Positions 8 through 23,492 of a stretch of DNA of 64,000 bases are shown here, piece by piece (the first letter of the stretch is position 1; every line of letters starts with the position of its first letter). Origin of the DNA: Candidatus Bathyarchaeota archaeon (GTDB lineage: Archaea; Thermoproteota; Bathyarchaeia; TCS64); NCBI GenBank assembly GCA_963769425.1, contig CAVYLP010000003.1, forward strand, positions 29,852 through 93,851. The letters run 5' to 3'. The position numbers and the translations under genes were made by a program. The notes under the pieces were generated by a model that saw only the letters and a list, made by a program, of their open reading frames with translations, was not told the origin of the DNA and ran no database searches.

Positions 8-1732
8 TTGATGTTATATATGGATTTAAAAAAACATTTATTATTAGATATTATAAATAAAAAACAAAAATGGATATTAGCCATATTCATAACGTTATTA
101 ATCATTTCAATAAGTTTGTTATTTATTTTAACTTATACATCAAAACCGTTTACTTTAACTGAAAATAGTACCCTCTTTAGTGTTCTTCCGCCTTTATATT
201 GGGTTTTAACTTTATTAAATTTTATATTCATTTTTACCATTAGTAGATTTATTAAAAATAAAAAATTGCTATTCTCATTACTAATTTTGGATTCCTGCAC
301 TTCACTGTTTCTTAATTATATATTTTTTATACCTGTAGGACAATCAGATATAAATTCAGTAACAAAATATCTTACGGTATTAAATTCATCTAATAACATT
401 GGCATAACCCAAATTAATATTGATAGCTATTTTCAATGGCCGATATATTTTATATTTGCGAAAATCATAATGCTTGTGTTCAACACAGATATATCAACAA
501 CAATTAAAATTGGGTACAGTCTATTCAATATTTTATTTACATTTTTTATAACATTTTTCCTTATTAAACTTAATATTAGTATTAAAAATATATTTTACAT
601 TCTACCAATATATAACATATTAAGTTATCATTTTATAGTTTTACAATTTGCTCAACAAACATTAGCTCTTTTATATACCATATTGATATTTATTTTGTTC
701 ATTAGCATTGAAAAAATAAATGTAAAGTCATTATTATATATAATTTATATAGCATTAATTTTCACACATCCATTTTTTTTCATATTTTTCATAACATCCA
801 TTTTAATAGAGATTACATTATTTAAAAATAAAAAGAAGATTATAAATATTAATTTATTTCTCTCATTACTAGCCATATATTTAATAAGCTATAAAATATT
901 CTTTTCGAGCATAAATTCTCAATTCATAGATCTAATAAGCAATGTTGGATTATTTAAAAGCGAGACATGGACAACTATATTCAGCTTTTTAGGACTAAAA
1001 ATTAACAATCAGACTTCTGCAACATATCCGTTTTATAATTTAGTAAATATCCAATACCTATCACTTTTAGCTAATATATCAAGATTAATTTTACTATCAT
1101 TCATAGGAATCCTCATGATCGATGGTCTTATAATGCTTAAAGAAAAACAATTATTCAAAACCATTAAACAGTTAGACATCTCAATCATGATTTCTACACT
1201 AATTTTTTGGATAATTGGATTATTTTCTTCATTTTTAGGTCAACGCTCACTTCAGGTGTTTTTCATACCAGTCGCAAAGAGCTACAACTATATAATTAAA
1301 AAATCGACCATCATGAAATCAATAATTCTATTACTAATAATTATATCCCCTATTGTTTTCTCATTAACTTCTTGGGGAGACACCTTTTTGACTGGAAGTT
1401 ATTCAGTCAAAGATTTTGAGATGGAGAAATCGGGTCAAATTATTGACAAATTTGCTCTGAGTGATCAAAAAGTTTTAGCTGCAAACAATGGATTTCCAAC
1501 CGGGTATCCCTCAGGTCTTAAAATCTATTATGTTCAACCAGGGTACTTTGAGTACATCAATATAACAAATAAAACATCTAACATGGACTTAATTTTATAT
1601 ACGCCAAAAATGAACATGTTAATACAATACTACGGAATTCAACAAATTAAAAAACAAAATTTATTGAATAATAACGTATTATATAATAATAAGAACACTA
1701 TATGCATAAATCCTTTACATGTCATCAAATAA
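8..1732 (+). CDS. Large polytopic membrane protein (574 aa) in the AT-rich island. It may be a glycan polymerase or an oligosaccharyl/glycosyl-transferase-type membrane protein.
   Basis: Long ORF with more than 10 predicted hydrophobic segments. It heads a cluster of glycosyltransferase and sugar-modifying genes. No family motif was recognised. Confidence 0.45.
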   Translation: MMLYMDLKKHLLLDIINKKQKWILAIFITLLIISISLLFILTYTSKPFTLTENSTLFSVLPPLYWVLTLLNFIFIFTISRFIKNKKLLFSLLILDSCTSLFLNYIFFIPVGQSDINSVTKYLTVLNSSNNIGITQINIDSYFQWPIYFIFAKIIMLVFNTDISTTIKIGYSLFNILFTFFITFFLIKLNISIKNIFYILPIYNILSYHFIVLQFAQQTLALLYTILIFILFISIEKINVKSLLYIIYIALIFTHPFFFIFFITSILIEITLFKNKKKIININLFLSLLAIYLISYKIFFSSINSQFIDLISNVGLFKSETWTTIFSFLGLKINNQTSATYPFYNLVNIQYLSLLANISRLILLSFIGILMIDGLIMLKEKQLFKTIKQLDISIMISTLIFWIIGLFSSFLGQRSLQVFFIPVAKSYNYIIKKSTIMKSIILLLIIISPIVFSLTSWGDTFLTGSYSVKDFEMEKSGQIIDKFALSDQKVLAANNGFPTGYPSGLKIYYVQPGYFEYINITNKTSNMDLILYTPKMNMLIQYYGIQQIKKQNLLNNNVLYNNKNTICINPLHVIK

Positions 1733-1885: not shown

Positions 1886-3118
1886 ATGAAACAAATACGA
1901 ATGGCGCTAATATTAGGAAATTTTTATACCAAATCTTTTCCGAGCTGGCCACAGGTTACTGGGGTATATGGTTTAAATTTACCAAACAAAGGACACCTCG
2001 TCGACATGTTCATGCCTTATCATGCAAATGCATTTCAAAAAACACAATCTATAGCTTTGTATAAAAGCAGAATTTATTTAATTCCTTGGATGAAAACCAA
2101 TTCATACCTATTTTCTATGGTTACATTCATGATATACCAAATGAGACTTTTCTTTAGTTTATTAAAATTAAATAAGGAAAATCATTATAACATATTTCAG
2201 GTTAGAGACGAAATATTCTCAGGAATAACCGTATTATTATATAACATCTTATTAAAGAAAAAATATACATTCAACTACTCATTTCCATTTTTTGAGGGAT
2301 TAAATGAAGCATATAGGAATGGTGAAAAAGTAAATAAAATTCAGTTATTATTTTTCTATATTCAAGATATTATTTTAAAAAATTTACTATTCAAAAAAAG
2401 TACCTATATTTTTCCAATAAGTGGTGAAATGCTATCAGAACTGGTCAAAATCGGTATTCCACGAGATAAAATGTATCCGCTTACAGAAGGAATAGAACCA
2501 ACCACATTTAAAATCAATTCGAATTATAACGAACTGAAAAAAATTCTCAACATTAATGATAACGAATTTATCATTTCGTACGTCGGATCACTATCATCTT
2601 CAAGAGGCATTGAAATAATAATAGACGCCTTTGAGATGGTTTTAAAAGATAACCCCCAAACAAAATTATTATTAATTGGGTCAGGAAATGATTTCAATTA
2701 CTTAAAAAATAAGGTTGACCGTAAAAATCTTAATAATTCAATAATTTTTACCGGCCAAGTAAGTCATGATGAGGTTCCAAATTATATTTCCATATCTAAC
2801 GTTTGTTTGTCTATAATTAAACCTTTAAAGAGCTTTTTTGTTAGTTCTCCATGTAAACTTTTTGAGTATATGATACTAGGGAAACCGATAATTGCTAATA
2901 AAGAAATTCCTGAACATGAAAGAGTAATATCAGAATCAAATTGTGGCCTATTAACAGAATATAATACAAATGATATAAAAAATGCGATAAATTATTCCAT
3001 TAAAAACTATGATAATTTTAAATTACTAGGAGAAAATGGGAAAAAATGGGTTATTGAAAAAAGAACATTTTCTAAGATCTCAGAACAATTAGAAGAGATT
3101 TATTTATCGCTTTTATGA
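1886..3118 (+). CDS. Glycosyltransferase, GT1/GT4-type (410 aa)
   Basis: C-terminal motif EYMILGKPIIANKEIPEHERVISESNCGLL is typical of group-1 glycosyltransferases (E-x7-E nucleotide-sugar binding region). It sits in the glycan cluster. Confidence 0.7.
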   Translation: MKQIRMALILGNFYTKSFPSWPQVTGVYGLNLPNKGHLVDMFMPYHANAFQKTQSIALYKSRIYLIPWMKTNSYLFSMVTFMIYQMRLFFSLLKLNKENHYNIFQVRDEIFSGITVLLYNILLKKKYTFNYSFPFFEGLNEAYRNGEKVNKIQLLFFYIQDIILKNLLFKKSTYIFPISGEMLSELVKIGIPRDKMYPLTEGIEPTTFKINSNYNELKKILNINDNEFIISYVGSLSSSRGIEIIIDAFEMVLKDNPQTKLLLIGSGNDFNYLKNKVDRKNLNNSIIFTGQVSHDEVPNYISISNVCLSIIKPLKSFFVSSPCKLFEYMILGKPIIANKEIPEHERVISESNCGLLTEYNTNDIKNAINYSIKNYDNFKLLGENGKKWVIEKRTFSKISEQLEEIYLSLL

Positions 3119-3167: not shown

Positions 3168-4253
3168 TCAACTACTAATGGTTTTGAATTTGTTCTGTAA
3201 CGCTGGATCTTCCTTTATTTGAACCAAGCTTTCCGGATAATAGCTAATAAACCATACCAAGAAAGATGTCACATCAATTTTATCATTCAATAAATGATTT
3301 CTCTTGACACGCCAATCTTGTTTGACACCATTCTCAGATATCAACATTGTAGCGTATTTCAAAGCCTCAGAAGGATTCGAAAAACTATGCAAAAGATCAT
3401 ACTTTTTCTCAAGTTCCAACAGATTACCCATTGTATTCGATAGCGATGAAACGTATACCGAAGGAGTGCCCAATAAGGCGGCTTCAGTCGCCATCGAAGC
3501 CCCCTCCCCCACATAAAGCGATGCATAATACAGTAAATCATGGATATACACTGGATGAATTGTTAATTTGAATTTTTCAATATCGTTTGGCAATTGCCCT
3601 TCGGCACTCACAAAAACTTTTCCATACTTCGATAATTCTTCAATAAATGCCATTTTATCAAGAATTCCTGTTTGACGAACATCATGTGTGGCGGTCCAAG
3701 CACTGAATCGGATAATTGTGAACTTATCCTCAATCTTAAGGCTAAGCATATCAAGAACAGCTGGATTTGGTGAAAACCATCTTGGGTGAAGATAAACTAT
3801 TTTTTGATCCCCTTGATACCTGATTTGTTTTGAACCTAAATTTAGCTTATAGTTATCAGGGGTAAAAATGACGCTCGTGAAGGGTGCGTACAATCTATAC
3901 TGTTCTCTCGAGTGCTCCGTATCTTCAAAAGTAATCGATGGTTTTTTTAATAGCCAGGCTACATGTGCTGCACGAACCTATCCAAGACCGATGAAAATAT
4001 CTGGCTTAAAATCCAATGCGGCTTTATACAGTTTTAAATCCATCAAAGGCATGTTCAATAATTTCTTAGTAATAGAATCGCCGTAATTACCAAAGTTGAT
4101 ATAATTAACACCATAGCAATCCAATAACTCAAAAACAATAGGTCTACCTGACGCTATAACTAATACTTTATTACCTAATCGCTCCATTTCACGGATAAAA
4201 TATTTGAAAAAGTGAACATGAGCAGGATGATTAATATCCGTAATGATATTCAA
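3168..4253 (-). pseudogene. DUF354-like protein (a predicted glycosyltransferase/epimerase-like family) interrupted by an in-frame TAG
   Basis: ORFs 3978..4253 and 3168..3893 are in the same frame on the minus strand. Translation reads ...IFIGLG * VRAAHVAWLLKKPSITFEDTEHSREQYRL-YAPF... through a TAG at 3978-3980. The C-terminal ORF starts at TTG. Confidence 0.55.
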
Positions 4254-4299: not shown

Positions 4300-5295
4300 T
4301 TATATTTGAGCCTCGATTCCCTTATACTTCAATTGCAAAATATTTTTAAAACAATCGAAAATTGGTTTTCTAATAAATTTATAATATTTTCCATAATTTA
4401 CCAAATTTCCACCAAATCTTCTCTTAAACTCACGGGGCCCGTAAGGCCTTTGAGGATTTCCCGCCCCTCCAAAGTCAAAAAATTTATATCCATTTTTACT
4501 GCCAATTTCTAAACCTAACCATACCATTAATTCATTTGAATATTCAGAAACGTCATTATACAAAGATCCAGCATACCAATCATACATTACATCCTTATAG
4601 GTCAGAAATATTCTTGTAACTATAGGCTCATCATTTTTATATCCAATTTTTCCTATTATTTGTCCCTTAAGATACTTAAAAGCATTGATAAAAACTATCT
4701 TGTTTGGATTAGGCATATTTACTCTTTTATAAGTATTACAAATAAGACGATACGATTCATCGATATTTTTTTGAGTTTTAATATCGGAAATCACGATATT
4801 TTTACTTAATGCTTTTTTAATATTTTTTCTTCTATTTTTAGGAATTGAATCCCATGTTATTTTTGAATCTAGATTTAGTGGTATTTCATAATTCAAGTGA
4901 TCCTCATAATAATAACTTATTTTTGAAAGAGCATTTTTAATGCTGCTTGTATCCCACATATTTTTAATATCTATCATAGAAGAAGGTATAATTTTTGGAT
5001 TTAATTCATCGATGTAGGATAATAGCATCGACGCATACATCGATTCATCGATAATTGGTCCCCCCTGAAAAGATAATCTTGAAAATAAATTATAATAATT
5101 TGTTAAATTCCCAACCATTAACCCCTTTATATTGTTATTATTTAATATAGTCAAACCCACTGATTTATTATAATTATCAATATTATTTACTTTATAATAC
5201 TCAGGCGTTTGAAATATATTGCCAAATTTATTAGTTAAAACATACTCTTTCCATTGTTTTTCATTAACTTTATCTATATTCATAATTTGTAGCAT
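4300..5295 (-). CDS. FemAB-like acyltransferase (FemABX / DUF482-like GNAT-fold family)
   Basis: C-terminal FDFGGAGNPQRPYGPREFKRRFGG motif characteristic of the FemAB family. 331 aa. Confidence 0.6.
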   Translation of the reverse strand: MLQIMNIDKVNEKQWKEYVLTNKFGNIFQTPEYYKVNNIDNYNKSVGLTILNNNNIKGLMVGNLTNYYNLFSRLSFQGGPIIDESMYASMLLSYIDELNPKIIPSSMIDIKNMWDTSSIKNALSKISYYYEDHLNYEIPLNLDSKITWDSIPKNRRKNIKKALSKNIVISDIKTQKNIDESYRLICNTYKRVNMPNPNKIVFINAFKYLKGQIIGKIGYKNDEPIVTRIFLTYKDVMYDWYAGSLYNDVSEYSNELMVWLGLEIGSKNGYKFFDFGGAGNPQRPYGPREFKRRFGGNLVNYGKYYKFIRKPIFDCFKNILQLKYKGIEAQI

Positions 5296-5298
5296 AAG

Positions 5299-6063
5299 TT
5301 ACCCTCCTCTAAAAATACGTATAGCCAATTTACCCGAGTTAAACAAATTATCTAAACACCAACTTATTACAAATTCAGAATAATTCGTTGCCCATCTTTC
5401 AGGGTGAATATTTAAATATAATTTAGAAAAGGACTTTGTGGAAATTACTTTTATTAAATCATTTGTATTTCTTATTTTAATCGAATTTATATCAGTTTTA
5501 ATGTAGTCCCTTAAATTGTTTTTATTATCCCAGCTACGTCCAGCATCCGTATAATAATCTATATCAGAAATAGATAGACTACCATCGCCAAGCAAATTAA
5601 AATCTTCAAACTTTACATTTTCCCAAATAGAGCTGCTCACATATCTCGACAAGGGCCGCCCATGCATGCTAATCGTATTAACATAGCATATTTTTCTAAA
5701 TTCTTCGAGCTCTTTCTTAAAAACATTAATGGCTTCAAATTGGTCACCATTTGTCTTGCAGAGCGTCTCATAATGATAGCCAATCTCATGCCCCATAACC
5801 GAAATTGATCGAATAATATCCTTATCAAAAACTCCAGAAGAATATCTAAAATAATATGTCGCTGAAATTCCTAAATTGTATTCCAGTTCAGCCATTTTTA
5901 AGGCATTCTTGGGCTTTCGGTCAACATCATGTCTTAAAATTATAAATCCATCCACCGGATGAGATTTTAAATATTCTTCTACGGTAATGAATCTATATCT
6001 AGAAATAATATTACACAGTTCTTTATACTTAGCTAATGTAAAATCAAGAGTCATATAGCTCAC
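5299..6063 (-). CDS. Polysaccharide deacetylase-like protein (carbohydrate esterase 4 superfamily-like)
   Basis: RHDVDRKP motif and His-rich metal-site residues (HEIGYHYE). It is separated by only 3 nt from the upstream FemAB-like gene. Confidence 0.5.
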   Translation of the reverse strand: MSYMTLDFTLAKYKELCNIISRYRFITVEEYLKSHPVDGFIILRHDVDRKPKNALKMAELEYNLGISATYYFRYSSGVFDKDIIRSISVMGHEIGYHYETLCKTNGDQFEAINVFKKELEEFRKICYVNTISMHGRPLSRYVSSSIWENVKFEDFNLLGDGSLSISDIDYYTDAGRSWDNKNNLRDYIKTDINSIKIRNTNDLIKVISTKSFSKLYLNIHPERWATNYSEFVISWCLDNLFNSGKLAIRIFRGG

Positions 6064-6204
6064 ATCGTAATGAATTAACGATCATAATTCTATTATTAAA
6101 TAGTATGCAATTTATTAAGAGTACGTTTCGCCGTTATTACAATGATTGCCAACCTAAATAAGAAAACAGTATTACTTTGAAGAACTCGTGCTAACTAATG
6201 AGTA

Positions 6205-7203
6205 TTAAAAAAATCGCCTTTTAAGGAGCCTCAAATACACTGACTCTGCGAATTTACCCCGTATATTCTGTTTCCTAACGGTATAAAAAGCGGTAAGTTT
6301 CGGTCCAAATTTTGATTTATATGTGGCAATTCCTTCTTTGTTAGCGCCTACAAAATCTATTTTTAGGATGCCTTCCTGCTTACATTTTTTTATGTTTTCC
6401 CAAGTGAGCAACTCATTTACAGGTATTTTTCCTTCAGGTCTTACGCTTCCAAGCCAATCCATGTAAGTATCATTGTGCCATAGAACAACTTCAGATCCGA
6501 CTATATCCTCGCCATTTTTTACTAAGTGGATGCATATATTATCTGGAAATAGTGCCCTAAGTTCGTTTAAATAATCTTTACTATATAATGGAATTGTTAA
6601 TCCTTGTTCAATATATCTCTTTGAAATCATACCAAATACAAGATCACTTTTATCAGTTTCAACTATTTTTATATTCAATTCTTCCGCTTTTCTTATTTTA
6701 GAACGTTTCTTAATATTAATACCCTTCCAAATTGTATCTATATCGGAAGATAAGTCTAGGATATATGTATAGTTAACATTCACATCATATCCACCCCAAA
6801 TTAACTGTCTAGTATCAATAATATCAGGCATGAACGAAATAAATATGTAATCGGGGTTTAATTGTTCTAATGTTTTAGAGAAATCATCATAAATAATCTT
6901 GAGATATTCTTCCTGTTTCTCTTGGTTAAAATCATAAAATGTGTCTTTAAGGGCATATCCAAGATAGGGTATACTAGCTCTCGGCGGTGGTGAGAATAAC
7001 ATCTTAACGGAATATTGTTGTTTATAGAAAACAGGGAATAAGCAAAACAGTTCATCGGTCTTAAAAAAACCGTAGGTTAACAAATCGAATCCAGAGTATT
7101 TAGCCGTTGTTTTAAGAAAATCCCAACGATGAAATATTGTTGAGTGACTGCAATCCTTAATGAATTTATCCCAGACCTGCGGGTCATCAATTATTTTTAT
7201 CAA
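6205..7203 (-). CDS. FemAB-like acyltransferase, paralog of 4300..5295
   Basis: C-terminal ...GILKIDFVGANKEGIATYKSKFGPKL resembles the FemAB signature. Size is similar (332 aa). Confidence 0.55.
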   Translation of the reverse strand: MIKIIDDPQVWDKFIKDCSHSTIFHRWDFLKTTAKYSGFDLLTYGFFKTDELFCLFPVFYKQQYSVKMLFSPPPRASIPYLGYALKDTFYDFNQEKQEEYLKIIYDDFSKTLEQLNPDYIFISFMPDIIDTRQLIWGGYDVNVNYTYILDLSSDIDTIWKGINIKKRSKIRKAEELNIKIVETDKSDLVFGMISKRYIEQGLTIPLYSKDYLNELRALFPDNICIHLVKNGEDIVGSEVVLWHNDTYMDWLGSVRPEGKIPVNELLTWENIKKCKQEGILKIDFVGANKEGIATYKSKFGPKLTAFYTVRKQNIRGKFAESVYLRLLKRRFF

Positions 7204-7291
7204 AAGGCCAGTCCTCGGACTCTATCTAACAGCTCAAAGATAAATTGATTATTATTAACCATATATATTATTCTTAACTTAATTATGTACA

Positions 7292-8332
7292 ATGAATTAC
7301 GACATATTGAAATCAAGTGATAAAATTTGGGACATCTACACGGTAAAAAATGATTATCAAATTAATGAAACTAATAATAATTTAAAACGCAACTCTGAAA
7401 TAATAAAAAATCCTCTGGCCTCAGAATATCTATTTAAAAATGAAAAGGTGCCCGAATATCCAAATGGGGAGGGATTTGCTTTATGTCTTACACACGACGT
7501 CGATGAAATTTACTTTCCATGGAGCCATTTACTACAAGCCATAATTTATTACGCCAAAAAAATGAATACGCATGGAATAATAAATTCCTTCCATTGGAAA
7601 TTTCGTAAAAAAGAGAGTCCATATCTAGATTTTAAAAAGATACTCGATCTTGAGAAAACATACAATGTTAGATCCACATTCTTTTTCCTAGCAACTGAAA
7701 AAGATCCCATCAGATTTCGATATGTCATTGAAGACGCAACGGAAATCATCAAAGATATTCAATCAGAAGGATTCGAAATAGGACTTCACGGTGGATACTA
7801 TGCTTACAATAATCTTGAGGACATCATTCAACAAAAAATTAGACTCGAAAGAGTTTCTAACAGCCAAGTAATTGGTTACAGGAATCATTATCTAAATTTT
7901 AACGTCCCTCAGACATGGTATTATCTGACAAAAGCGGGATTTACATATGATTCAACCATCGGATACAACACAAATAACGGATTCAGAAATGGCATGTGCC
8001 ACCCATACAAACCATATGATCGGAATATTAATAATTATATAAATATTATTGAAATTCCCCCAATTATCATGGACTCTGCATTTCCAAAAGGCACACTAGT
8101 AACTAATTGGTGGGAATTAAAGAAGATGTTAAAAGTTGTCGAGAAAAATCACGGGGTTCTCACCGTTAATTTCCACAACGAAGTGTTTCACGCCCCCTAC
8201 AAAGCAGACTTCATGAAGCTGTACGTGCATCTCCTGGAGGAAGGGAGAAGAAGAAAGGCTTGGATGACAAATGCCTCCGAGATACATGACTGGTGGAGAA
8301 AAAAATATATCGAGGAAGATATTATCACATAA
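7292..8332 (+). CDS. Polysaccharide deacetylase-like protein, paralog of 5299..6063
   Basis: LTHDVDE motif near the N-terminus and GLHGGYY His motif. 346 aa. Confidence 0.5.
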   Translation: MNYDILKSSDKIWDIYTVKNDYQINETNNNLKRNSEIIKNPLASEYLFKNEKVPEYPNGEGFALCLTHDVDEIYFPWSHLLQAIIYYAKKMNTHGIINSFHWKFRKKESPYLDFKKILDLEKTYNVRSTFFFLATEKDPIRFRYVIEDATEIIKDIQSEGFEIGLHGGYYAYNNLEDIIQQKIRLERVSNSQVIGYRNHYLNFNVPQTWYYLTKAGFTYDSTIGYNTNNGFRNGMCHPYKPYDRNINNYINIIEIPPIIMDSAFPKGTLVTNWWELKKMLKVVEKNHGVLTVNFHNEVFHAPYKADFMKLYVHLLEEGRRRKAWMTNASEIHDWWRKKYIEEDIIT

Positions 8333-8572: not shown

Positions 8573-9662
8573 TTAATAGTAGTCCCCGTAGGAAAAGTGT
8601 ATTTTGCTAGGTTGGGAGTTCTCAAGGAGTTTGAACTCCTTCTTTGCCAGGTCGGTATGGCAATACATCATAAGTGGCAGATTGCTTCTGACATCAATAA
8701 AGCCCAATTTAGATGCAATTTTCTGGTAGTTATGACCTGCCACAACTCTATAATTTATAGCATTTACACTCAAGCCATCGAAGTAGTCACACGCGTCCAC
8801 AAACAGGCTTGAAGCCACATCCAATCTCCCAGGTAAAGCAAGGAGGTCCATTATGTAACCCTCCGATAACGCACCATCTCCCTTAACCTGAAGCACACAG
8901 TACCCCAGAATCTCTTCCCCCTCAGTGACCTGCTTGACAAGGATACGGTGCCATCGCGGATCTAAATATCTCCAATTCAGGTAATCTTTGTTCCTCTCAA
9001 CCACGAAATTTAGACCCGCCTTGACTCTGTCGTAGAAGACATTGATACGTTCATCGAAGAAAGATTTCTCGGCGATGACAAAGTCACCTCGATAGCTAGG
9101 TTTGGGAATCAATCTACCTTCAATCGATTTCATTCCTTTGAAAGTGCTGAAAGCAAAGCACTTCATAGTAGCATTTTCTATAGACACTGACCTGAAGTAT
9201 TTGCGAACGTTCTTCACTCTGAGCATGTGGCATATTGCATGTGGGAAGACCCTTCGACCCTTCTTGAAGTGGTGCTTCACTATAATGGGACTTAGAGGAA
9301 TTTCATAACTTACCTCATAGCCCTTACGGGTCAGCTCCAGCATGTTGGAGTCGAATACCCTAGAATATACCCCCAAACCTTTGAACTCCCTATGGGTAGC
9401 CGCGTCGTCTCCGTACCTCCCCATGAAGGTGCGGCTACCGATCTTTATTGTTAGAAGAATTGCATGATCAGCAGCCAACTACTTTTCCATCATTCACAGC
9501 AACAGTTATTATCGAGCCCTCGGGACAATCGATATACTTCCACCGCCAAAAATCAAGTGGAGCCTTTATTCTGGCCCAATCTGGAAATGACTGTATCAAT
9601 AATTCCACTATTCCCTCCTCATCGCCAGATTCATAAGGACGGACATTAAAATCAAGACTCAT
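8573..9662 (-). pseudogene. GNAT-family N-acetyltransferase (tandem-GNAT, about 360 aa), frameshifted
   Basis: ORF 9468..9662 gives the N-terminus (...ITVAVNDGKVVGC). ORF 8573..9478 gives the remainder (YGDDAATHREFKGLGVY acetyl-CoA motif). They are collinear with the intact paralog 11354..12442, but a 1-nt frame change falls near 9470-9480. Confidence 0.55.
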
Positions 9663-9972: not shown

Positions 9973-11030
9973 ATGTCAAACGAGCTTCAAACAAGATTTT
10001 ATAAAAATGGCGATGAACTGGAAATCGTAAAATTACTAAGGCGTATTTTCGATGACTGGGCTGCTCCGCATAAAACCAATTGACTTCTGGAAATGGAAAT
10101 ATCAATCTACGCCCCTAGGGTCATCTATTGCGCTTGTAACAATCGACGATAAATTGGCAGGAATCTGGCCATAGGTTAAATTATCGAATTAAGATCGGAG
10201 AAAGGGTTCTAAGAAGTCATTACGGAGATGATTTCGCGACACATCCAGATTTCAGGGGCAGAGGTGTATATAATAAAGTACTTAATGTATTAGAAGATGA
10301 ACGTCATAATAGTGGGGTAAATTTTCTCTACACGATAACCACAAATCCAATCGTAATGAAAGATAATATCAAGATGGGCAGATTTGACTTACCCCAGCCA
10401 CTTCTACACATGATCCTTGTAAAGCAGGCTAGATCCGGAACGCAAGCAGGTCTTTACTTGTATGGCGGGTTAAAACGACTGACAAAAAGTCCTTCCCATG
10501 CCGCCTCCTCGAAACCCCATGGGGACTATTTAATCGAGACAATAAGGGAATTTAACGGTGCATCTGATACATTCTATGAACGAATAAAAGACTCATACAA
10601 CTTCATCGTCGAGAGAAACAAGGAATTCATGAACTGGCGGTACTGCGACATCAGAGGAGGCAGATTTTTAATTAAACAAGCAAAACGAGGCGATGACGTT
10701 TTAGGTTATATCATTCTTGAGGTTAAGACTAAAGGAGAAAACTCGGAAGGATACATCATTGATATGCTAGCTGAGGACGATGAGGTTGCTACTTCCCTTT
10801 TAAAAGATGGCATTAACTCTTTAGCAGTTCTAGGAGTTGGTACATTTAACTACAGGGTTGTAAAGAACCATCCCTATCAAAAAATTTCAGAAAAACTTGG
10901 CTTCGTGGCACCACCTAATGTAATTGATATGCATGTCTACTGTCAATTTGATAACGCTGAAGAAGCAAAGGAGACTCTTTTAGCGACTGAACCAGGAAGT
11001 ATACACTTCAATTATGGCGATTATTTCTAG
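9973..11030 (+). pseudogene. GNAT-family N-acetyltransferase paralog. The N-terminal half is broken by several frameshifts or stops. The C-terminal 224 aa form an intact ORF (10356..11030).
   Basis: Fragments MSNELQTRFYKNGDELEIVKLLRRIFDDW... and ...DFWKWKYQSTPLGSSIALVTIDDKLAGIW lie in different frames. The C-terminal part aligns with 11354..12442 (ERNKEFMNWRY, GYIIDMLA). Confidence 0.5.
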
Positions 11031-11353: not shown

Positions 11354-12442
11354 TTGGACGACGATACAGTCATTAGAGTCTACAATCCAAGCGATGAGAA
11401 TGGCATTGTTGAACTCCTACAGATGTCATTCCCATTCTGGAAAAAGATTAAATCCCCTCTCAACTATTGGAGATGGAAATACCTTGAAAACCCGAAGGCC
11501 CCAATCATATTCATCGCCGAAACAGACGGCAAAATCGTAGGAGTCGATCATTTCACTAGGCTCAAGGCAAAAATAGGAGAATCAACCCAGGAAATATACT
11601 ACGGTGACGACGCTGCGACCCACCCTGATTATAGAGGTCGTGGAATCTATAACAAGATCAATAGGTTGCTTGAAGAAGAAAGAAAACGAAATGAGATTAA
11701 GATAGCTTTCTCGTTCACAACAAGCCAAACAGTTGTCAATAGGGGACTCGAAAAGGGCCGCCTTCCTTTTCCGCACCAACTAATTAACATGCTTAATGTG
11801 AATGACATAGACCTCTACCTTAAAACATCAAAGGTAAAAAACTTAACACTATATAGTCTTGGTTTCAAAATCCTTAAGACGGGTAACACGATTGTTAACC
11901 AATTTAAAGAAAAACAAAGAAACACAAATTTCGAGATAATTCAGGTCTCAAAATTTAAAGAGAATATGTGGGAGTTCTGGAAAACAATAGAACAAGAATA
12001 CTCTCTCATCTTCGAAAGAAGCAATGAGTACCTGAATTGGAGATACTCTGACCCCACTGCCGATGAAATAAAAATCCGAGAAGCCGTGATTAAGGACGAG
12101 GTAATCGGATATGTTGTGACCGAACTGAGGAATTATGCCGACAACATCCAAAAAGGCTACATTTTGGATCTTCTAGCGCTCCCCGAAAGACTCGACGCCG
12201 CTGGAAGCCTTTTAGAAAATGCTCTCAGTTACTTTAATAGTCTGGGAATAAATGGTGTCGAATATCAGGTTATTAGGGGACACCCATACCAGAGTCTAGC
12301 GAGCAAATATAACCTCGTAGACACGTCGCTGATATCTAAAAGATACTTTTCATGGCAATACAAGGGTGCTGAGAAAGAGTACGAGACAATCAAAGCAGCA
12401 CCGTCTAATAAAATTCACTTCACACTAAGCGACTATCTCTAA
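11354..12442 (+). CDS. GNAT-family N-acetyltransferase (362 aa), intact member of the three-gene paralog set
   Basis: YGDDAATHPDYRGRGIYNKI (R-G-x-G motif A). The second half repeats the GNAT-like fold (ERSNEYLNWRY...GYILDLLA). Confidence 0.6.
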   Translation: MDDDTVIRVYNPSDENGIVELLQMSFPFWKKIKSPLNYWRWKYLENPKAPIIFIAETDGKIVGVDHFTRLKAKIGESTQEIYYGDDAATHPDYRGRGIYNKINRLLEEERKRNEIKIAFSFTTSQTVVNRGLEKGRLPFPHQLINMLNVNDIDLYLKTSKVKNLTLYSLGFKILKTGNTIVNQFKEKQRNTNFEIIQVSKFKENMWEFWKTIEQEYSLIFERSNEYLNWRYSDPTADEIKIREAVIKDEVIGYVVTELRNYADNIQKGYILDLLALPERLDAAGSLLENALSYFNSLGINGVEYQVIRGHPYQSLASKYNLVDTSLISKRYFSWQYKGAEKEYETIKAAPSNKIHFTLSDYL

Positions 12443-12862: not shown

Positions 12863-13687
12863 TTAATAATCAACGATTTTTGCCTTTTTTAAGTCCAGAT
12901 TATTTGTACTAGTAATCACTACATTCGAATGAAAAAACTTATAAAAATACTTCATTTTAATTCTCCAGAAATAGTCACGAAGCAACAATCTAGACACATT
13001 AACAATATATCTTGTATAACGAATCTTCGATTTCTCATTGCCATAACGTGCAGGTATGTGGACGTCCATCACTCGGAAGCCAACCACATTTAGTTTCGCA
13101 AGAAGATCATTACAGTAGCCATAGGAGGGATAGACACCATTAAGATCAATTCCATGTAGAGCTTTCGAACTGATAGCTGTGTACCCATTCTGAGGATCAC
13201 CAATATTCCAATATCCTGATGAAAATTTGGTTAGCAACGTCAATAAAAAGTTCCCAAGTCTACGAAAGTTACTCATACCCTTCATATCTTTGATTGATAA
13301 AAGTCTATTTCCCTTGGTGTAGTCGGCCTTATCATCAATTATTGGGTCAACAAGTGAAGGTATATAACTTGGATCCATTTGGTTATCTCCGGCCATTACA
13401 ACTACTATGTCAATATTATCGTCGATGCTTTTTTTATACCCTGTAATTATCCCGGCACCTACTCCCTTGTTTACTTCATGCTTAATTGGGTGAATTCGGA
13501 AATCAGAAAGTGCTAGTTCTGCTGCTATTTCGTATGTTCGATCAGGGGAATCATCGTCAATTACGTAAATCTGATCAATGTAATCCGGAATTGTTTGTAT
13601 GGTTTGTCCAATAAGAAGCTCTTCTTTGTATGCGGGTACGACTACAGAGAGTTTCTTATTTTTATACATTATCGGGACCCTATTCAT
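12863..13687 (-). CDS. Glycosyltransferase family 2 (dolichyl-phosphate sugar synthase-like)
   Basis: N-terminal LSVVVPAYKEE...YVIDDDSPDRT (DxD) and GAGIITGY are typical of GT2. Confidence 0.75.
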   Translation of the reverse strand: MNRVPIMYKNKKLSVVVPAYKEELLIGQTIQTIPDYIDQIYVIDDDSPDRTYEIAAELALSDFRIHPIKHEVNKGVGAGIITGYKKSIDDNIDIVVVMAGDNQMDPSYIPSLVDPIIDDKADYTKGNRLLSIKDMKGMSNFRRLGNFLLTLLTKFSSGYWNIGDPQNGYTAISSKALHGIDLNGVYPSYGYCNDLLAKLNVVGFRVMDVHIPARYGNEKSKIRYTRYIVNVSRLLLRDYFWRIKMKYFYKFFHSNVVITSTNNLDLKKAKIVDY

Positions 13688-13992: not shown

Positions 13993-14936
13993 TTAGCCCA
14001 CCAGGACTCTCTGCCTTGTCTTCGAAGATCTCAGAGCCTCCTCACAGAGGGTAAGTGCACGAAGACCGTCTTCCCCGGTTATCTCAGGAGATAAACCGTT
14101 GGCGACGTGGTCTATGAATGAGCGAAGTTCCTCCTGAAGAGGTTCTTTATATGGTAAAAAGGGCTGTACAATCATTTCGTTATTTTCGATGGTGATCTGC
14201 TGGGTAGTGTACTCGACGTTGATTATTCCTTCTGTTCCGGTTACTGTGAGTGTCCTGATTCTTCTTGGGGTAAGCCAGTTTGTTTCGATAAATGCACTCC
14301 GGTCTCTATCATAGAAAAGATTGATGTTAGCATAATCTTCATACTTATGCCTGATACACCCTGCTACGGCTGAAACATACTGTGGCTCCCCTATGAGAAT
14401 GTGATTAATAATATCAATATCGTGGATGGCAAGGTCTTTCACAACACCAACGTCACCAATCCGATCTGGACTTCGACTTACTCTACGGGAGTGAGCAAGT
14501 ATTACATCTCCAATTTCGCCATTGGAACTTCTCTATACACCTCTTGGACTGCGGGATTGAATCGTTCTACGAAGCCAACCGTTAGAAAGACCCCAGCTTT
14601 GTGGGCCTTATCGATCAGGTTTTTCGCCTCTTCAATTGTATTCGTCATCGGTTTCTCGACAAGAACATGCTTACCATTTTCAATGGCTTGTAGGGCGAGA
14701 TCGTGGTGTGTTATAGTTGGTGTACAAATATCGACGACTTGTATGTTAGGGTCGTGGAATATTATTTTTGGATCGGTGTAGTATGGTACATGGTAAAGTT
14801 CACCGATCTCTCTAGCGGTAGGTTCATGAGCATCCGATATTGCCACAAGTTTGGCTCCGGGTAGGCTCCTGTAAACGCGAGCGTGGTTTCGACCCCAGCT
14901 CCCACATCCTATTACTGCGGCATTAATCGTCGACAT
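13993..14936 (-). pseudogene. Gfo/Idh/MocA-family NAD(P)-dependent sugar oxidoreductase, split by a frameshift
   Basis: ORF 14502..14936 carries the Rossmann N-terminus (AAVIGCGSWGRNHARVY...EKP). ORF 13993..14442 carries the C-terminal domain. They are in different frames and joined near 14445-14505. Confidence 0.6.
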
Positions 14937-20169: not shown

Positions 20170-20279
20170 TTGGTGCCGGGAATGGGAATTGAACCCATGG
20201 TCTCTATCCGGCTAAGGCACTGGTGCCTATAACCTCTGGATCATGAGTCCAGCGCATTAGCCAAGCTATGCTACCCCGG
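20170..20279 (-). tRNA. tRNA-Met/Ile2 (anticodon CAT) with an approximately 31-nt intron at a non-canonical position (variable-loop / T-arm junction). CCA is genome-encoded.
   Basis: Minus-strand read GCCGGGG-TA-GCAT-AGCTTGGCTA-ATGC-G-CTGGA-CTCATGA-TCCAG-[AGGTT...GAGACC insert]-ATGGG-TTCAATT-CCCAT-TCCCGGC-A-CCA. The acceptor, D, anticodon and T stems all pair. The extra 31 nt contains a GGCAC-CA-GTGCC hairpin. Confidence 0.6.
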
Positions 20280-20319
20280 CCCTTCTGACCCATACACACT
20301 GCACAAATTTAAATCCTGA

Positions 20320-22218: not shown

Positions 22219-23492
22219 GCGCGCTGCCTTGTCCCGAAATTAACGGCCAAACACCAATCCCTCGAGCAAGGAGACATAAAATCAACTCACAAAAACCACT
22301 AAGCCACATCAACCCCTCCGAAGCCCACAAAACACCCACAACAGACTACACCCCCAGAACCCCAAACCCACTACCCACTAGCCACCCCCACCAGAAACCC
22401 CTCAGACGAGACCCTCACACGTTGAAGAACGTAGGCGAAACAGCCTTCTCAGGCCGACCCAGACACTCAGCCGCCTCACGAACCAGCACGACACAGAGCA
22501 GGCTCAGCAACGCATACACCGAAACGCATCCCAGCCTCCTCACATTGTTCACGGTCAAACCGTACTGGGTCTTCAGCCAGCTGAACACCGACTCCACCAG
22601 CGGACGCTTATGGTACTCGGCCACGAGCCCAGGTGGACCGTGAGTCCTGAACCTACGATCAACCCTCAGAATCCCCTCACCTCTCTGGTTAGCAGTATAC
22701 GGAATCACCGAATCAGAGACGAGACCCCTCACCGCCGAGCTACTGTACTGGCTGTCCGCCACCAGGCTCCTCACCAACCCGCCGGCCCTAACCAGCACCG
22801 CCCTGGCCTTCTCAACCAAGCCTGGAGCGTGCTTCTTCTCGTTGTCGTTAGCGGGAGCCAGCAGAGTGGCTAAGGGAAGCATCGTTTTGTGGTCCACCGC
22901 GACGTGGAGTTTGTAGCCGAGGTCGTAGCCCCTGCCGTTCCTGCCCACTAGGGCGTCTGGGTCAGAGTACGCGACCCTGCTGTTATCCGGGTGCCTGATG
23001 CTCCGTGCCTTGATGAAGCTCGCATCCAGGAGCACATCGACCTCAGGGGCTCTGAATCTGAGGAGTTTGACCACCTTCTCCTCGAGGATGAGCTGGAGGA
23101 CGTCGGATCCGACCCGCTTCGTGAATCTGCTGATGACGGATCTGGGGTAGCCTCTCTGTTTCCCGTATATGAGGCAGAGCCGTCTGAGTCGCCGGTCGAC
23201 GTCGAGGATCCGGGTGAGCTCGCGGAGGCTTCGGATGCCTTTCAGCCTCATTATGAGGAGGGCTCTTAGGATTCCGAGTGGGTTTCTGGGTGGTCTGCCG
23301 GCTCCGGTTGTGTGGTAGCAGCCGATGAGTTGTTTTTGGGCAATGCTTAAGTCGACGTTTCTGAAGAGTGTTTCAAGGGTCTCGTGTTCGTCCTGTCCTA
23401 ACGGACTCGACCTCCTCTGGTTCCCGCCATGGGTGACGAGACCCTAACTTTCAAGATAAACTTGTCTCGAATTTAGGGACAAGGCAGCGCGC
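22219..23492 (-). mobile_element. IS4/IS5-family insertion sequence (about 1.27 kb) with 22-bp imperfect terminal inverted repeats
   Basis: Left end gcgcgctgccttgtcccgaaat (22219-22240). The reverse complement of the right end atttagggacaaggcagcgcgc (23471-23492) is gcgcgctgccttgtccctaaat, matching 20 of 22 positions. The DDE transposase ORF lies inside. A CA-rich 3' segment (22300-22400) resembles copy 2 at 46000-46100. Confidence 0.7.
22415..23251 (-). CDS. DDE transposase, IS4/IS5 family (278 aa from ATG; the frame stays open about 190 nt further upstream without a start codon)
   Basis: Segments DASFIKA, HVAVD, VADSQYSS and ESVFSWLK (DDE, with the E in the xxxFxWxK-like region). Confidence 0.7.
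   Translation of the reverse strand: MRLKGIRSLRELTRILDVDRRLRRLCLIYGKQRGYPRSVISRFTKRVGSDVLQLILEEKVVKLLRFRAPEVDVLLDASFIKARSIRHPDNSRVAYSDPDALVGRNGRGYDLGYKLHVAVDHKTMLPLATLLAPANDNEKKHAPGLVEKARAVLVRAGGLVRSLVADSQYSSSAVRGLVSDSVIPYTANQRGEGILRVDRRFRTHGPPGLVAEYHKRPLVESVFSWLKTQYGLTVNNVRRLGCVSVYALLSLLCVVLVREAAECLGRPEKAVSPTFFNV

Follow-up and report, generated by a model that had tools for sequence, protein, structure and literature searches.

This report concerns four genes, designated F1, D1, F2 and D2, at positions 4300-8332 of a 64,000-nucleotide stretch (the window) of a Candidatus Bathyarchaeota archaeon genome (contig CAVYLP010000003.1). On the basis of sequence families, a structural model and analogy to known systems, we lean towards the reading that the region encodes surface-glycan modification enzymes working like the bacterial Wbp/Vim pathway, in which an amino sugar would be de-N-acetylated and the freed amine would then be aminoacylated. 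The four genes are as follows.

F1: 4300-5295, minus strand, FemX-type double-GNAT aminoacyl-transferase-like protein, open reading frame of 331 amino acids.
D1: 5299-6063, minus strand, CE4-fold deacetylase-like protein of a family of ~250 amino acids, open reading frame of 254 amino acids.
F2: 6205-7203, minus strand, FemX-type double-GNAT aminoacyl-transferase-like protein, 332 amino acids.
D2: 7292-8332, plus strand, CE4/VimE-like deacetylase-like protein, 346 amino acids.

The boundaries of the four open reading frames (ORFs) agreed exactly with those of the initial annotation, which had been made from the DNA letters alone. Exact copies of all four proteins are carried by the 383,910-bp contig record at NCBI/ENA, on which F1 has 327 amino acids and starts four codons later (probably at 5283), and D1 has 251 and starts three codons later (probably at 6054). 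F2, D1, F1 and a DUF354 gene form a co-directional set on the minus strand, in which F2 and D1 are separated by ~141 nt, D1 and F1 by 3 nt, and F1 and DUF354 by 46 nt. D2 is divergent from F2 across a spacer of 88 nt. A hydropathy scan predicted no transmembrane (TM) segments in D1, D2, F1 or F2. The region had been described as two consecutive units of a Fem-like gene and a deacetylase gene; the genes are present, but the second unit is not co-directional, with D2 on the plus strand.

The pairs had also been called duplicated, a description that did not survive comparison. F1 and F2 shared 29% identity over 177 amino acids. Their family profiles aligned along the full length (hhalign, 99.7%, E = 1.8e-25), so the two families are homologous from end to end. 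D1 and D2 were linked by profile comparison alone: BLASTP gave no significant match (E = 0.016), and the family profiles aligned over 66 columns (hhalign, 87%, E = 4e-6). A recent tandem duplication of a two-gene unit was rejected in view of the low F1/F2 identity, the profile-level kinship of D1 and D2, and the separate occurrence of the modules elsewhere. Judged by their sequences, the D1-F1(-DUF354) and D2-F2 modules are distinct ancient families and not recent duplicates.

Searches of the PDB with the single sequences of D1, D2, F1 and F2 gave nothing useful, and family profiles were needed. Both deacetylase-like proteins contain the HDVD motif recognized in the initial annotation (RHDVD in D1, THDVD in D2), and this motif is invariant across both families. 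D2 passed the Pfam model Polysacc_deac_1 (27.8 bits, cutoff 23.1). It also matched the NCBIfam model NF053580, named UDP-2,3-diacetamido-2,3-dideoxy-alpha-D-glucuronate deacetylase VimE, with an E-value of 1.2e-24 and a score of 86.8 bits (residues 64-316 on model positions 162-427). The homologues of D2 (n = 641) came mostly from Methanosarcinales, Methanoperedens, Altiarchaeales and Hodarchaeales, and H68, D69, D71, H79, H166, R197, H199, D220, H237 and H295 were invariant in the family, whose profile matched HpPgdA (3qbu) with an E-value of 8e-4. D1 had no match in Pfam or NCBIfam. Its family comprises ~1,700 proteins from Thermococcus, Archaeoglobales, Methanoregula, Methanoperedens and Methanosarcinaceae, with further members in Peptococcaceae and Thermosipho. 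D1 has the CE4 fold; the O-antigen deacetylase WbmS was its closest fold match, and the CE4 pseudoenzyme BA3943 was among the fold matches. The distorted (beta/alpha) barrel of the NodB fold, typical of CE4, was recovered. The motif-1 Asp residues and the first motif-2 His were invariant in both families (D43, D45 and H94 in D1; D69, D71 and H166 in D2).

The transferase-like proteins were placed both by profile and by fold. F2 passed the Pfam model PF13480 Acetyltransf_6 (48.5 bits, cutoff 22) and missed PF02388 FemAB (19.2 bits, cutoff 24); F1 fell below both cutoffs (FemAB 19.2 bits, Acetyltransf_6 17 bits). Both matched TIGR03019, with E-values of 4e-10 for F1 and 3e-16 for F2. An all-against-all HMMER search gave 1719 homologues of F1. 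A profile built from 30 F1-family sequences matched S. aureus FemX (6snr, 5e-23), W. viridescens FemX (FemX_Wv; 2.5e-17, aligned over positions 14-286), Sbb17 (9wqw, 3e-11), Sba18 (9wqy, 2e-9) and FemA (2e-4), and the profile matches of the F proteins were limited to the FemX, FemA and Sbb17 types. K291, invariant in the F1 family, lies in the segment REFKRRFGG, which aligned with AFKKVWG of S. aureus FemX; K296, invariant in the F2 family, lies in YKSKF. These Lys residues are probably equivalent to the catalytic K305 of FemX_Wv, an equivalence drawn from the motif [FY]-K-x-x-[FW] and not from a residue-level structural alignment. A basic segment (KKRSKIRKA in F2, KNRRKNIKKA in F1) aligned with SKTKSKIKRP of FemX.

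The AlphaFold2 model of F2 had a pLDDT confidence value of 89. A Foldseek search with this model placed Sbb17 and Sba18 (E = 4e-14) and FemX_Wv (TM-score 0.72-0.74) at the top, followed by S. aureus FemX and FemA and then by MprF aminoacyl-phosphatidylglycerol synthases. The eleven best fold matches were aminoacyl-tRNA-dependent enzymes, with TM-scores of 0.65-0.74, whereas acetyl-CoA-dependent tandem GNATs ranked lower, at 0.4-0.5. The double-GNAT fold of FemABX was found in F2 by the model and in F1 by the family-profile alignments. The FemAB-like assignment made from the letters therefore stands, since the closest relatives were FemX, Sbb17 and MprF by fold and FemX by profile, and not an unrelated GNAT subfamily. 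Judged by these comparisons, F1 and F2 would use aminoacyl-tRNA as acyl donor. Some F1 homologues of ~680 amino acids (P0256, P0258 and P0260) consist of two tandem Fem-like units and contain four GNAT domains per protein.

The genes recur together in other genomes. A scan of GTDB species genomes with the D2 profile returned 574 relatives, chiefly from Methanosarcinales, Methanocellales, Methanothrix and its relatives, Clostridia and Chloroflexota. The best 80 loci were used for neighbourhood counts, with ORFs labelled by family hidden Markov models and a distance limit of 10 kb from D2. The 67 archaeal loci were from Methanosarcinales, Methanocellales, Methanotrichaceae, Methanomicrobiales, Altiarchaeales and Methanomethylophilaceae, and the 13 bacterial loci from Clostridia, Peptococcaceae and Chloroflexota. 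The counts around D2 were as follows.

DUF354 within 10 kb: 76 of 80 loci.
DUF354 immediately upstream: 54 of 80 loci.
One or more Fem-like genes within 10 kb: 54 of 80 loci.
Fem-like gene immediately downstream: 25 of 80 loci.
The GT2 gene of the window within 10 kb: 43 of 80 loci.
One or more Wbp-like genes within 10 kb: 45 of 80 loci.
D1 within 10 kb: 25 of 80 loci.
D1 together with at least two Fem-like genes nearby: 12 of 80 loci.

With a Fem-like gene near D2 in 54 loci and directly downstream of it in 25, the pairing of D2 with Fem-like genes is far beyond chance. The genes directly downstream are F2 orthologues. The 12 loci with the full set comprised three from Methanotrichaceae/Methanothrix and nine from bacteria (Clostridia and Chloroflexota), and GT4 genes adjoined D2 in ~38 related loci.

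The gene order of the window, F-D1-F-DUF354-D2, was also found in a Methanothrix locus (L079), which additionally has a canonical TIGR03006-like deacetylase. Lachnoclostridium phytofermentans and other bacteria have WbpD-WbpE-D1, a few extra genes, and then GT2-F-DUF354-D2-F; most bacterial loci start with WbpB, but that of L. phytofermentans does not. In Thermococcus waiotapuensis (L010), WbpD-E-B-A is followed by GT2-D1-DUF354-GT4, with no Fem-like gene. Full WbpA/B/E/D sets were present in L010, L076 and L088, and WbpB, WbpD and WbpE without WbpA in L031, L042, L043, L047, L053, L085 and L087. A metagenome-assembled genome (MAG) of Hodarchaeales (L001) has GT2-WbpB-WbpA followed by an F2-like gene, with an F1-like gene, a D2-like gene and DUF354 further on. 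The closest F1 homologue forms a translationally coupled pair with a canonical PF01522 deacetylase and stands beside a hexapeptide acetyltransferase. A multi-TM family of ~630 amino acids, with no Pfam or NCBIfam match, occurs alongside the cassette in 53 of 91 loci (for example L001, 18409-20292). The cassette occurs in Methanosarcina isolates as well as in MAGs (for example M. spelaei, L052), and in Methanosarcina its genes can follow the order DUF354-D2-GT4-Fem. The Fem-deacetylase pairs of the initial annotation are thus present, but they form part of a bigger unit that takes in DUF354, an AglJ/PpgS-like GT2 and a multi-TM protein as well.

Two variations on the cassette were observed. A Methanocellaceae MAG (CAVTVW010000004.1; L037, 10953-19775) has a single D2 gene and, after it, an almost unbroken same-strand run of seven Fem-like genes, which suggests stepwise peptide building or a diversification of the added amino acid. 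The extra genes between D1 and GT2 in bacteria (L058 3117-7064 in L. phytofermentans; L047 3875-7154) encode a PIG-L/BshB-like deacetylase and a flavoprotein of the geranylgeranyl-reductase family, joined in L058 by an ATP-grasp ligase and a PHP-family phosphatase. Their presence may point to additional amide-bond chemistry and to a polyprenyl carrier in reduced form.

The nearest known system is that of Porphyromonas and Tannerella, in which WbpA/B/E/D make UDP-GlcNAc3NAcA (PMC7468200; PMC13086638). Removal of the 2-N-acetyl group is the role proposed for VimE, a putative CE4 deacetylase, and VimA, which is TIGR03019-like, attaches Ser or Gly; when vimA is exchanged between species, a different amino acid, Gly in place of Ser, appears on the linking sugar (PMC7468200). 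Transfer of the sugar is presumed to be the task of VimF, a glycosyltransferase encoded next to them (PMC7468200; PMC13086638). The window resembles this system in that a CE4 deacetylase gene adjoins a FemAB/TIGR03019-like gene and a GT-B-type gene. Related loci also carry WbpA/B/E/D, and in both cases N-acetyl removal would precede amino acid addition. However, the cassette has two deacetylase families and two Fem-like families where the Vim system has one of each, and it uses DUF354 in place of the GT4 protein VimF. Its hosts are archaea, Clostridia and Chloroflexota without a type IX secretion system (T9SS), D2 is distant from VimE (87 bits against a cutoff of 440), and the Wbp genes of the window are missing or broken. 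The initial annotation had suggested that an amino sugar of a surface glycan is deacetylated and then N-acylated or aminoacylated. The folds, the motifs and the synteny argue for deacetylation with subsequent aminoacylation, but the bacterial Wbp/Vim precedent had been missed.

The same two enzyme types are paired by TIGR03019 and TIGR03006 in the glycan loci of the PEP-CTERM/XrtA system. TIGR03019 was the best or near-best NCBIfam match of F1 and F2, and TIGR03006 was a secondary match of D2. The scores in the window were, however, far below the cutoffs of ~260-276 bits, and no exosortase or archaeosortase family was found among the 40 window ORFs scanned with Pfam. Membership in the PEP-CTERM/XrtA system was rejected on these two grounds. 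The fold of F2 is that of FemX, Sbb17, Sba18 and Orf11, a double GNAT without the coiled-coil insertion of FemA, and F1 and F2 both keep the catalytic Lys motif. The F proteins differ from FemX, Sbb17 and Sba18 in sequence (11-14% identity) and presumably in acceptor, which would be a glycan precursor where those enzymes use a peptidoglycan stem peptide or an antibiotic intermediate. Enzymes of the Sba18/Orf11 type move Gly from Gly-tRNA onto the amine of an amino sugar (PMC12945691), so the proposed aminoacylation has a direct precedent on the Fem fold. Sequence identity to WbmS (Bordetella O-antigen locus, PDB 3hft), whose function is itself putative, and to ArnC/ArnD was 14-17%. ArnC and ArnD act in the synthesis and deformylation of lipid-linked 4-deoxy-4-formamido-L-arabinose (Ara4FN).

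In the pathway that we propose, D1 or D2, with their CE4 fold, would remove an N-acetyl group from an amino sugar, most likely a 2,3-diacetamido-2,3-dideoxy-uronic acid made by enzymes of the WbpA/B/E/D type. Deacetylation could take place on the UDP-sugar, as in the VimE model, or on a polyprenyl/dolichyl-phosphate-linked sugar, as in the ArnC/ArnD model. F1 or F2 would then acylate the freed amine on the cytoplasmic side with an amino acid from aminoacyl-tRNA. The two modules might serve two different N-acetyl positions or sugars, or a two-residue branch. Loading and transfer of the modified sugar would fall to DUF354, GT4, the AglJ/PpgS-like GT2 and a large multi-TM protein. We infer the substrate, the aminoacyl-tRNA donor, the order of the steps and the final acceptor from these comparisons. 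A more far-reaching version seems to us quite doubtful. In it, the cross-domain cassette would assemble, on a dolichyl/polyprenyl phosphate carrier, a diamino uronic acid that is N-aminoacylated twice or bears a peptide, and this would be the first case in Archaea of a glycan modified from aminoacyl-tRNA. Its free alpha-amines, like the seryl amine of the Porphyromonas linking sugar, could then accept surface proteins in a sortase-like covalent anchoring.

The four genes lie in a glycan island that continues past the left edge of the window. Its other genes are as follows.

8-1732, plus strand: membrane protein of 574 amino acids with ~11 hydrophobic segments by hydropathy scan.
1886-3118, plus strand: GT4 glycosyltransferase (Pfam Glycos_transf_1, 7.6e-25).
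3168-4253, minus strand: DUF354 protein, GT-B-like, both halves matching PF04007.
8573-9478, minus strand, 10356-11030, plus strand, and 11354-12442, plus strand: three GNAT-like paralogues with 29-39% mutual identity, between D2 and GT2.
12863-13687, minus strand: GT2 glycosyltransferase (Pfam Glycos_transf_2, 2e-23).
14017-14927, minus strand: WbpB-like oxidoreductase of the GFO_IDH_MocA family, with a frameshift near 14511-14520.

The adjoining glycosyltransferases mentioned in the initial annotation are therefore present, as GT4, the GT-B-like DUF354 protein and GT2. The 574-amino-acid protein had no Pfam or NCBIfam match and no detectable kinship with the ~630-amino-acid multi-TM family; it is possibly a polymerase or a GT-C-type transferase. 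The best NCBIfam relatives of GT2, all below cutoff, were AglJ, PgfS, PpgS, a dolichyl-phosphate hexose transferase and ArnC, and the protein is unusually conserved, with 53-72% identity between archaeal and bacterial cassette copies. Its likeness to dolichyl-phosphate or polyprenyl-phosphate sugar synthases suggests a monosaccharide intermediate linked to a lipid phosphate. The third GNAT paralogue (11354-12442) matched Acetyltransf_9 and Acetyltransf_1, the first has a 5' frameshift (9471-9644), and a homologue of these paralogues stands at the edge of the Hodarchaeales locus L001.

The DUF354 gene is broken by a single in-frame TAG at 3978-3980, and apart from this codon one reading frame aligns along the intact homologues. 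The homologues carry Ser, Ala, Gly or Asn at this position, and TAG closes 10 of the 40 ORFs of the window. Recoding of the codon, as pyrrolysine or otherwise, was rejected on account of these small residues and of the 10 ORFs ending in TAG. Because TAG is a normal stop here and the homologues have Ser, Ala, Gly or Asn, the codon is attributed to a nonsense mutation or an assembly error. The WbpB-like gene was recovered by tblastn with a Thermococcus WbpB-like protein in two frames, covering amino acids 2-142 and 140-308. The disruptions in DUF354, the WbpB-like gene and the GNAT paralogue may reflect decay or MAG assembly errors.

A scan of the window gave a GC content of 21-33% in the first 8 kb, 36-45% from there to ~20 kb and 50-62% in the remainder. 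Low GC is usual in surface-glycan islands. The DDE transposase gene of an insertion sequence lies near the island, at 22415-23251. The GC gradient and the nearby transposase fit a horizontally acquired, variable surface-glycan island. Beyond the glycan genes, a tRNA-Met (CAU) at 20174-20280 on the minus strand has a 33-nt insertion after the anticodon stem; it matched Rfam with 55.5 bits and was not called by ARAGORN. The insertion resembles an intron, though not at a canonical position, and would be in keeping with an archaeal source. The nearest named relatives, which are Hodarchaeales, and the predominance of archaea in the D families likewise make an archaeal origin likely.

Several observations weigh against the deacetylation-aminoacylation pathway. 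The roles of the D1, D2, F1 and F2 families are computational predictions, and the activity of VimE, on which the analogy leans, is itself putative (PMC7468200). The equivalog cutoffs were missed widely: D2 reached 86.8 of the 440 bits required for VimE, and D1 had no VimE match at all; D2 matched TIGR03006 with an E-value of 3e-10 and 39.7 bits against a cutoff of 276, and F1 and F2 scored 39-59 bits against the TIGR03019 cutoff of 260. Acetylation by a WbpD-type enzyme would be pointless if the acetyl group were then taken off the same position, so it is hard to see what two deacetylases would do on one sugar. The DUF354 gene contains its in-frame TAG, and the sole Wbp gene of the window is the frameshifted WbpB-like one. 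WbpA, WbpE and WbpD were not found in the 64 kb of the window, whose left edge the island passes. Finally, the second canonical metal His of CE4 is absent from both D families.

The last point bears on what D1 and D2 do. The metal site expected in the initial annotation is partly in place, with H-D-x-D and the first motif-2 His kept and the second His missing, and the outcome is ambiguous. In alignments to SpPgdA, Bc1960 and HpPgdA, the position four residues after the first His is an invariant Leu (Leu98) in D1, while in D2 the canonical second His aligns with a Tyr of GLHGGYYAY, either Y170 or Y172 depending on the alignment. The Asp-His-His triad is therefore incomplete, and the CE4 combination of the second motif-1 Asp with a motif-2 H-x-x-x-H was found in neither protein. 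This loss, the presence of the pseudoenzyme BA3943 among the fold matches and the lack of any Pfam or NCBIfam match for D1 would suit the view that D1 and/or D2 are not metal-dependent de-N-acetylases but pseudoenzymes, metal-independent hydrolases of the PuuE type, or enzymes for another substrate class. We consider this improbable. The conservation of four to six His and three to four Asp residues across hundreds of homologues argues for catalysis, and the model that matches D2 is named a deacetylase by NCBI. The invariant His just before motif 1 (H42 in D1, H68 in D2), a candidate substitute metal ligand, might stand in for the missing residue. A late invariant His (H217 in HPERW of D1, H295 in WHN of D2) is a candidate for the catalytic acid His of motif 5 near the C-terminus. 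A comparable doubt concerns the donor of the F proteins, which could be N-acyltransferases using acyl-CoA or another non-tRNA donor, so that the product would carry an acyl group other than an amino acid. The Pfam match of F2 to Acetyltransf_6 is indeed to a GNAT acetyltransferase domain, acetyl-CoA-dependent tandem GNATs are among the fold matches, and VimA for a long time carried the annotation of an acetyl-CoA transferase (PMC7468200). Nevertheless, exchange of VimA turns Ser to Gly on the sugar (PMC7468200), the fold ranking favours aminoacyl-tRNA-dependent enzymes over the acetyl-CoA-dependent GNATs, the profile matches were confined to FemX, FemA and Sbb17, and the Fem catalytic Lys motif is invariant. 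We therefore give a non-tRNA donor little credence.

A different arrangement of the same enzymes, and a different fate of the island, were also weighed. All four proteins might act in sequence on one branch: one deacetylase would free the amine, F2 would add the first amino acid and F1 would extend it, as in the stepwise extension model of FemX followed by FemA/B, while the second deacetylase would act on another residue or, like ArnD, on a polyprenyl-phosphate-linked sugar. This is somewhat unlikely, as D1-F and D2-F neighbours turn up again as modules in their own right (L020, L056, L062, L079 and L091) and it is specifically the F2 orthologues that come after D2. The island in this genome might instead be a decaying, horizontally acquired remnant whose pathway is non-functional. 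The TAG in DUF354, the frameshifts in the WbpB-like gene and the GNAT paralogue, the drop in GC relative to the sequence further along and the insertion-sequence transposase all accord with decay. On the other hand, F1, D1, F2, D2, GT4 and GT2 are all full-length, the family-invariant residues are intact, the disruptions could be MAG assembly errors and the low GC is ordinary for islands of this kind. Decay of the pathway thus appears unlikely, and de-N-acetylation followed by aminoacylation is the reading that we retain.

The kind of system proposed here is already known in bacteria, from Wbp/Vim and, as a comparative-genomics precedent, from the TIGR03019-TIGR03006 pair. What is new is its architecture, with two deacetylase families, two Fem-like families and DUF354, and its wide spread in methanogenic and other archaea. 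Aminoacyl-tRNA-dependent decoration is established for bacterial peptidoglycan, membrane lipids and a small number of antibiotics; for the T9SS linking sugar it is established by genetics. A full-text literature search found no description of aminoacyl-tRNA-dependent glycan decoration in archaea, and nothing relevant on DUF354, a Methanococcus Thr-attachment gene or archaeal Fem-like glycan enzymes. Since the cassette occurs in Methanosarcina isolates and methanogens are open to genetic manipulation (PMC3462420), the prediction of an amino sugar bearing an amino acid may be testable. The cassette is common, being widespread among methanogens and present in some Clostridia and Chloroflexi, and three of its protein families, DUF354, the D1 family and the ~630-amino-acid membrane protein, carry no functional assignment. 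If the prediction is true, the free amine on the surface glycan would alter the surface charge and would provide a handle for covalent protein attachment.

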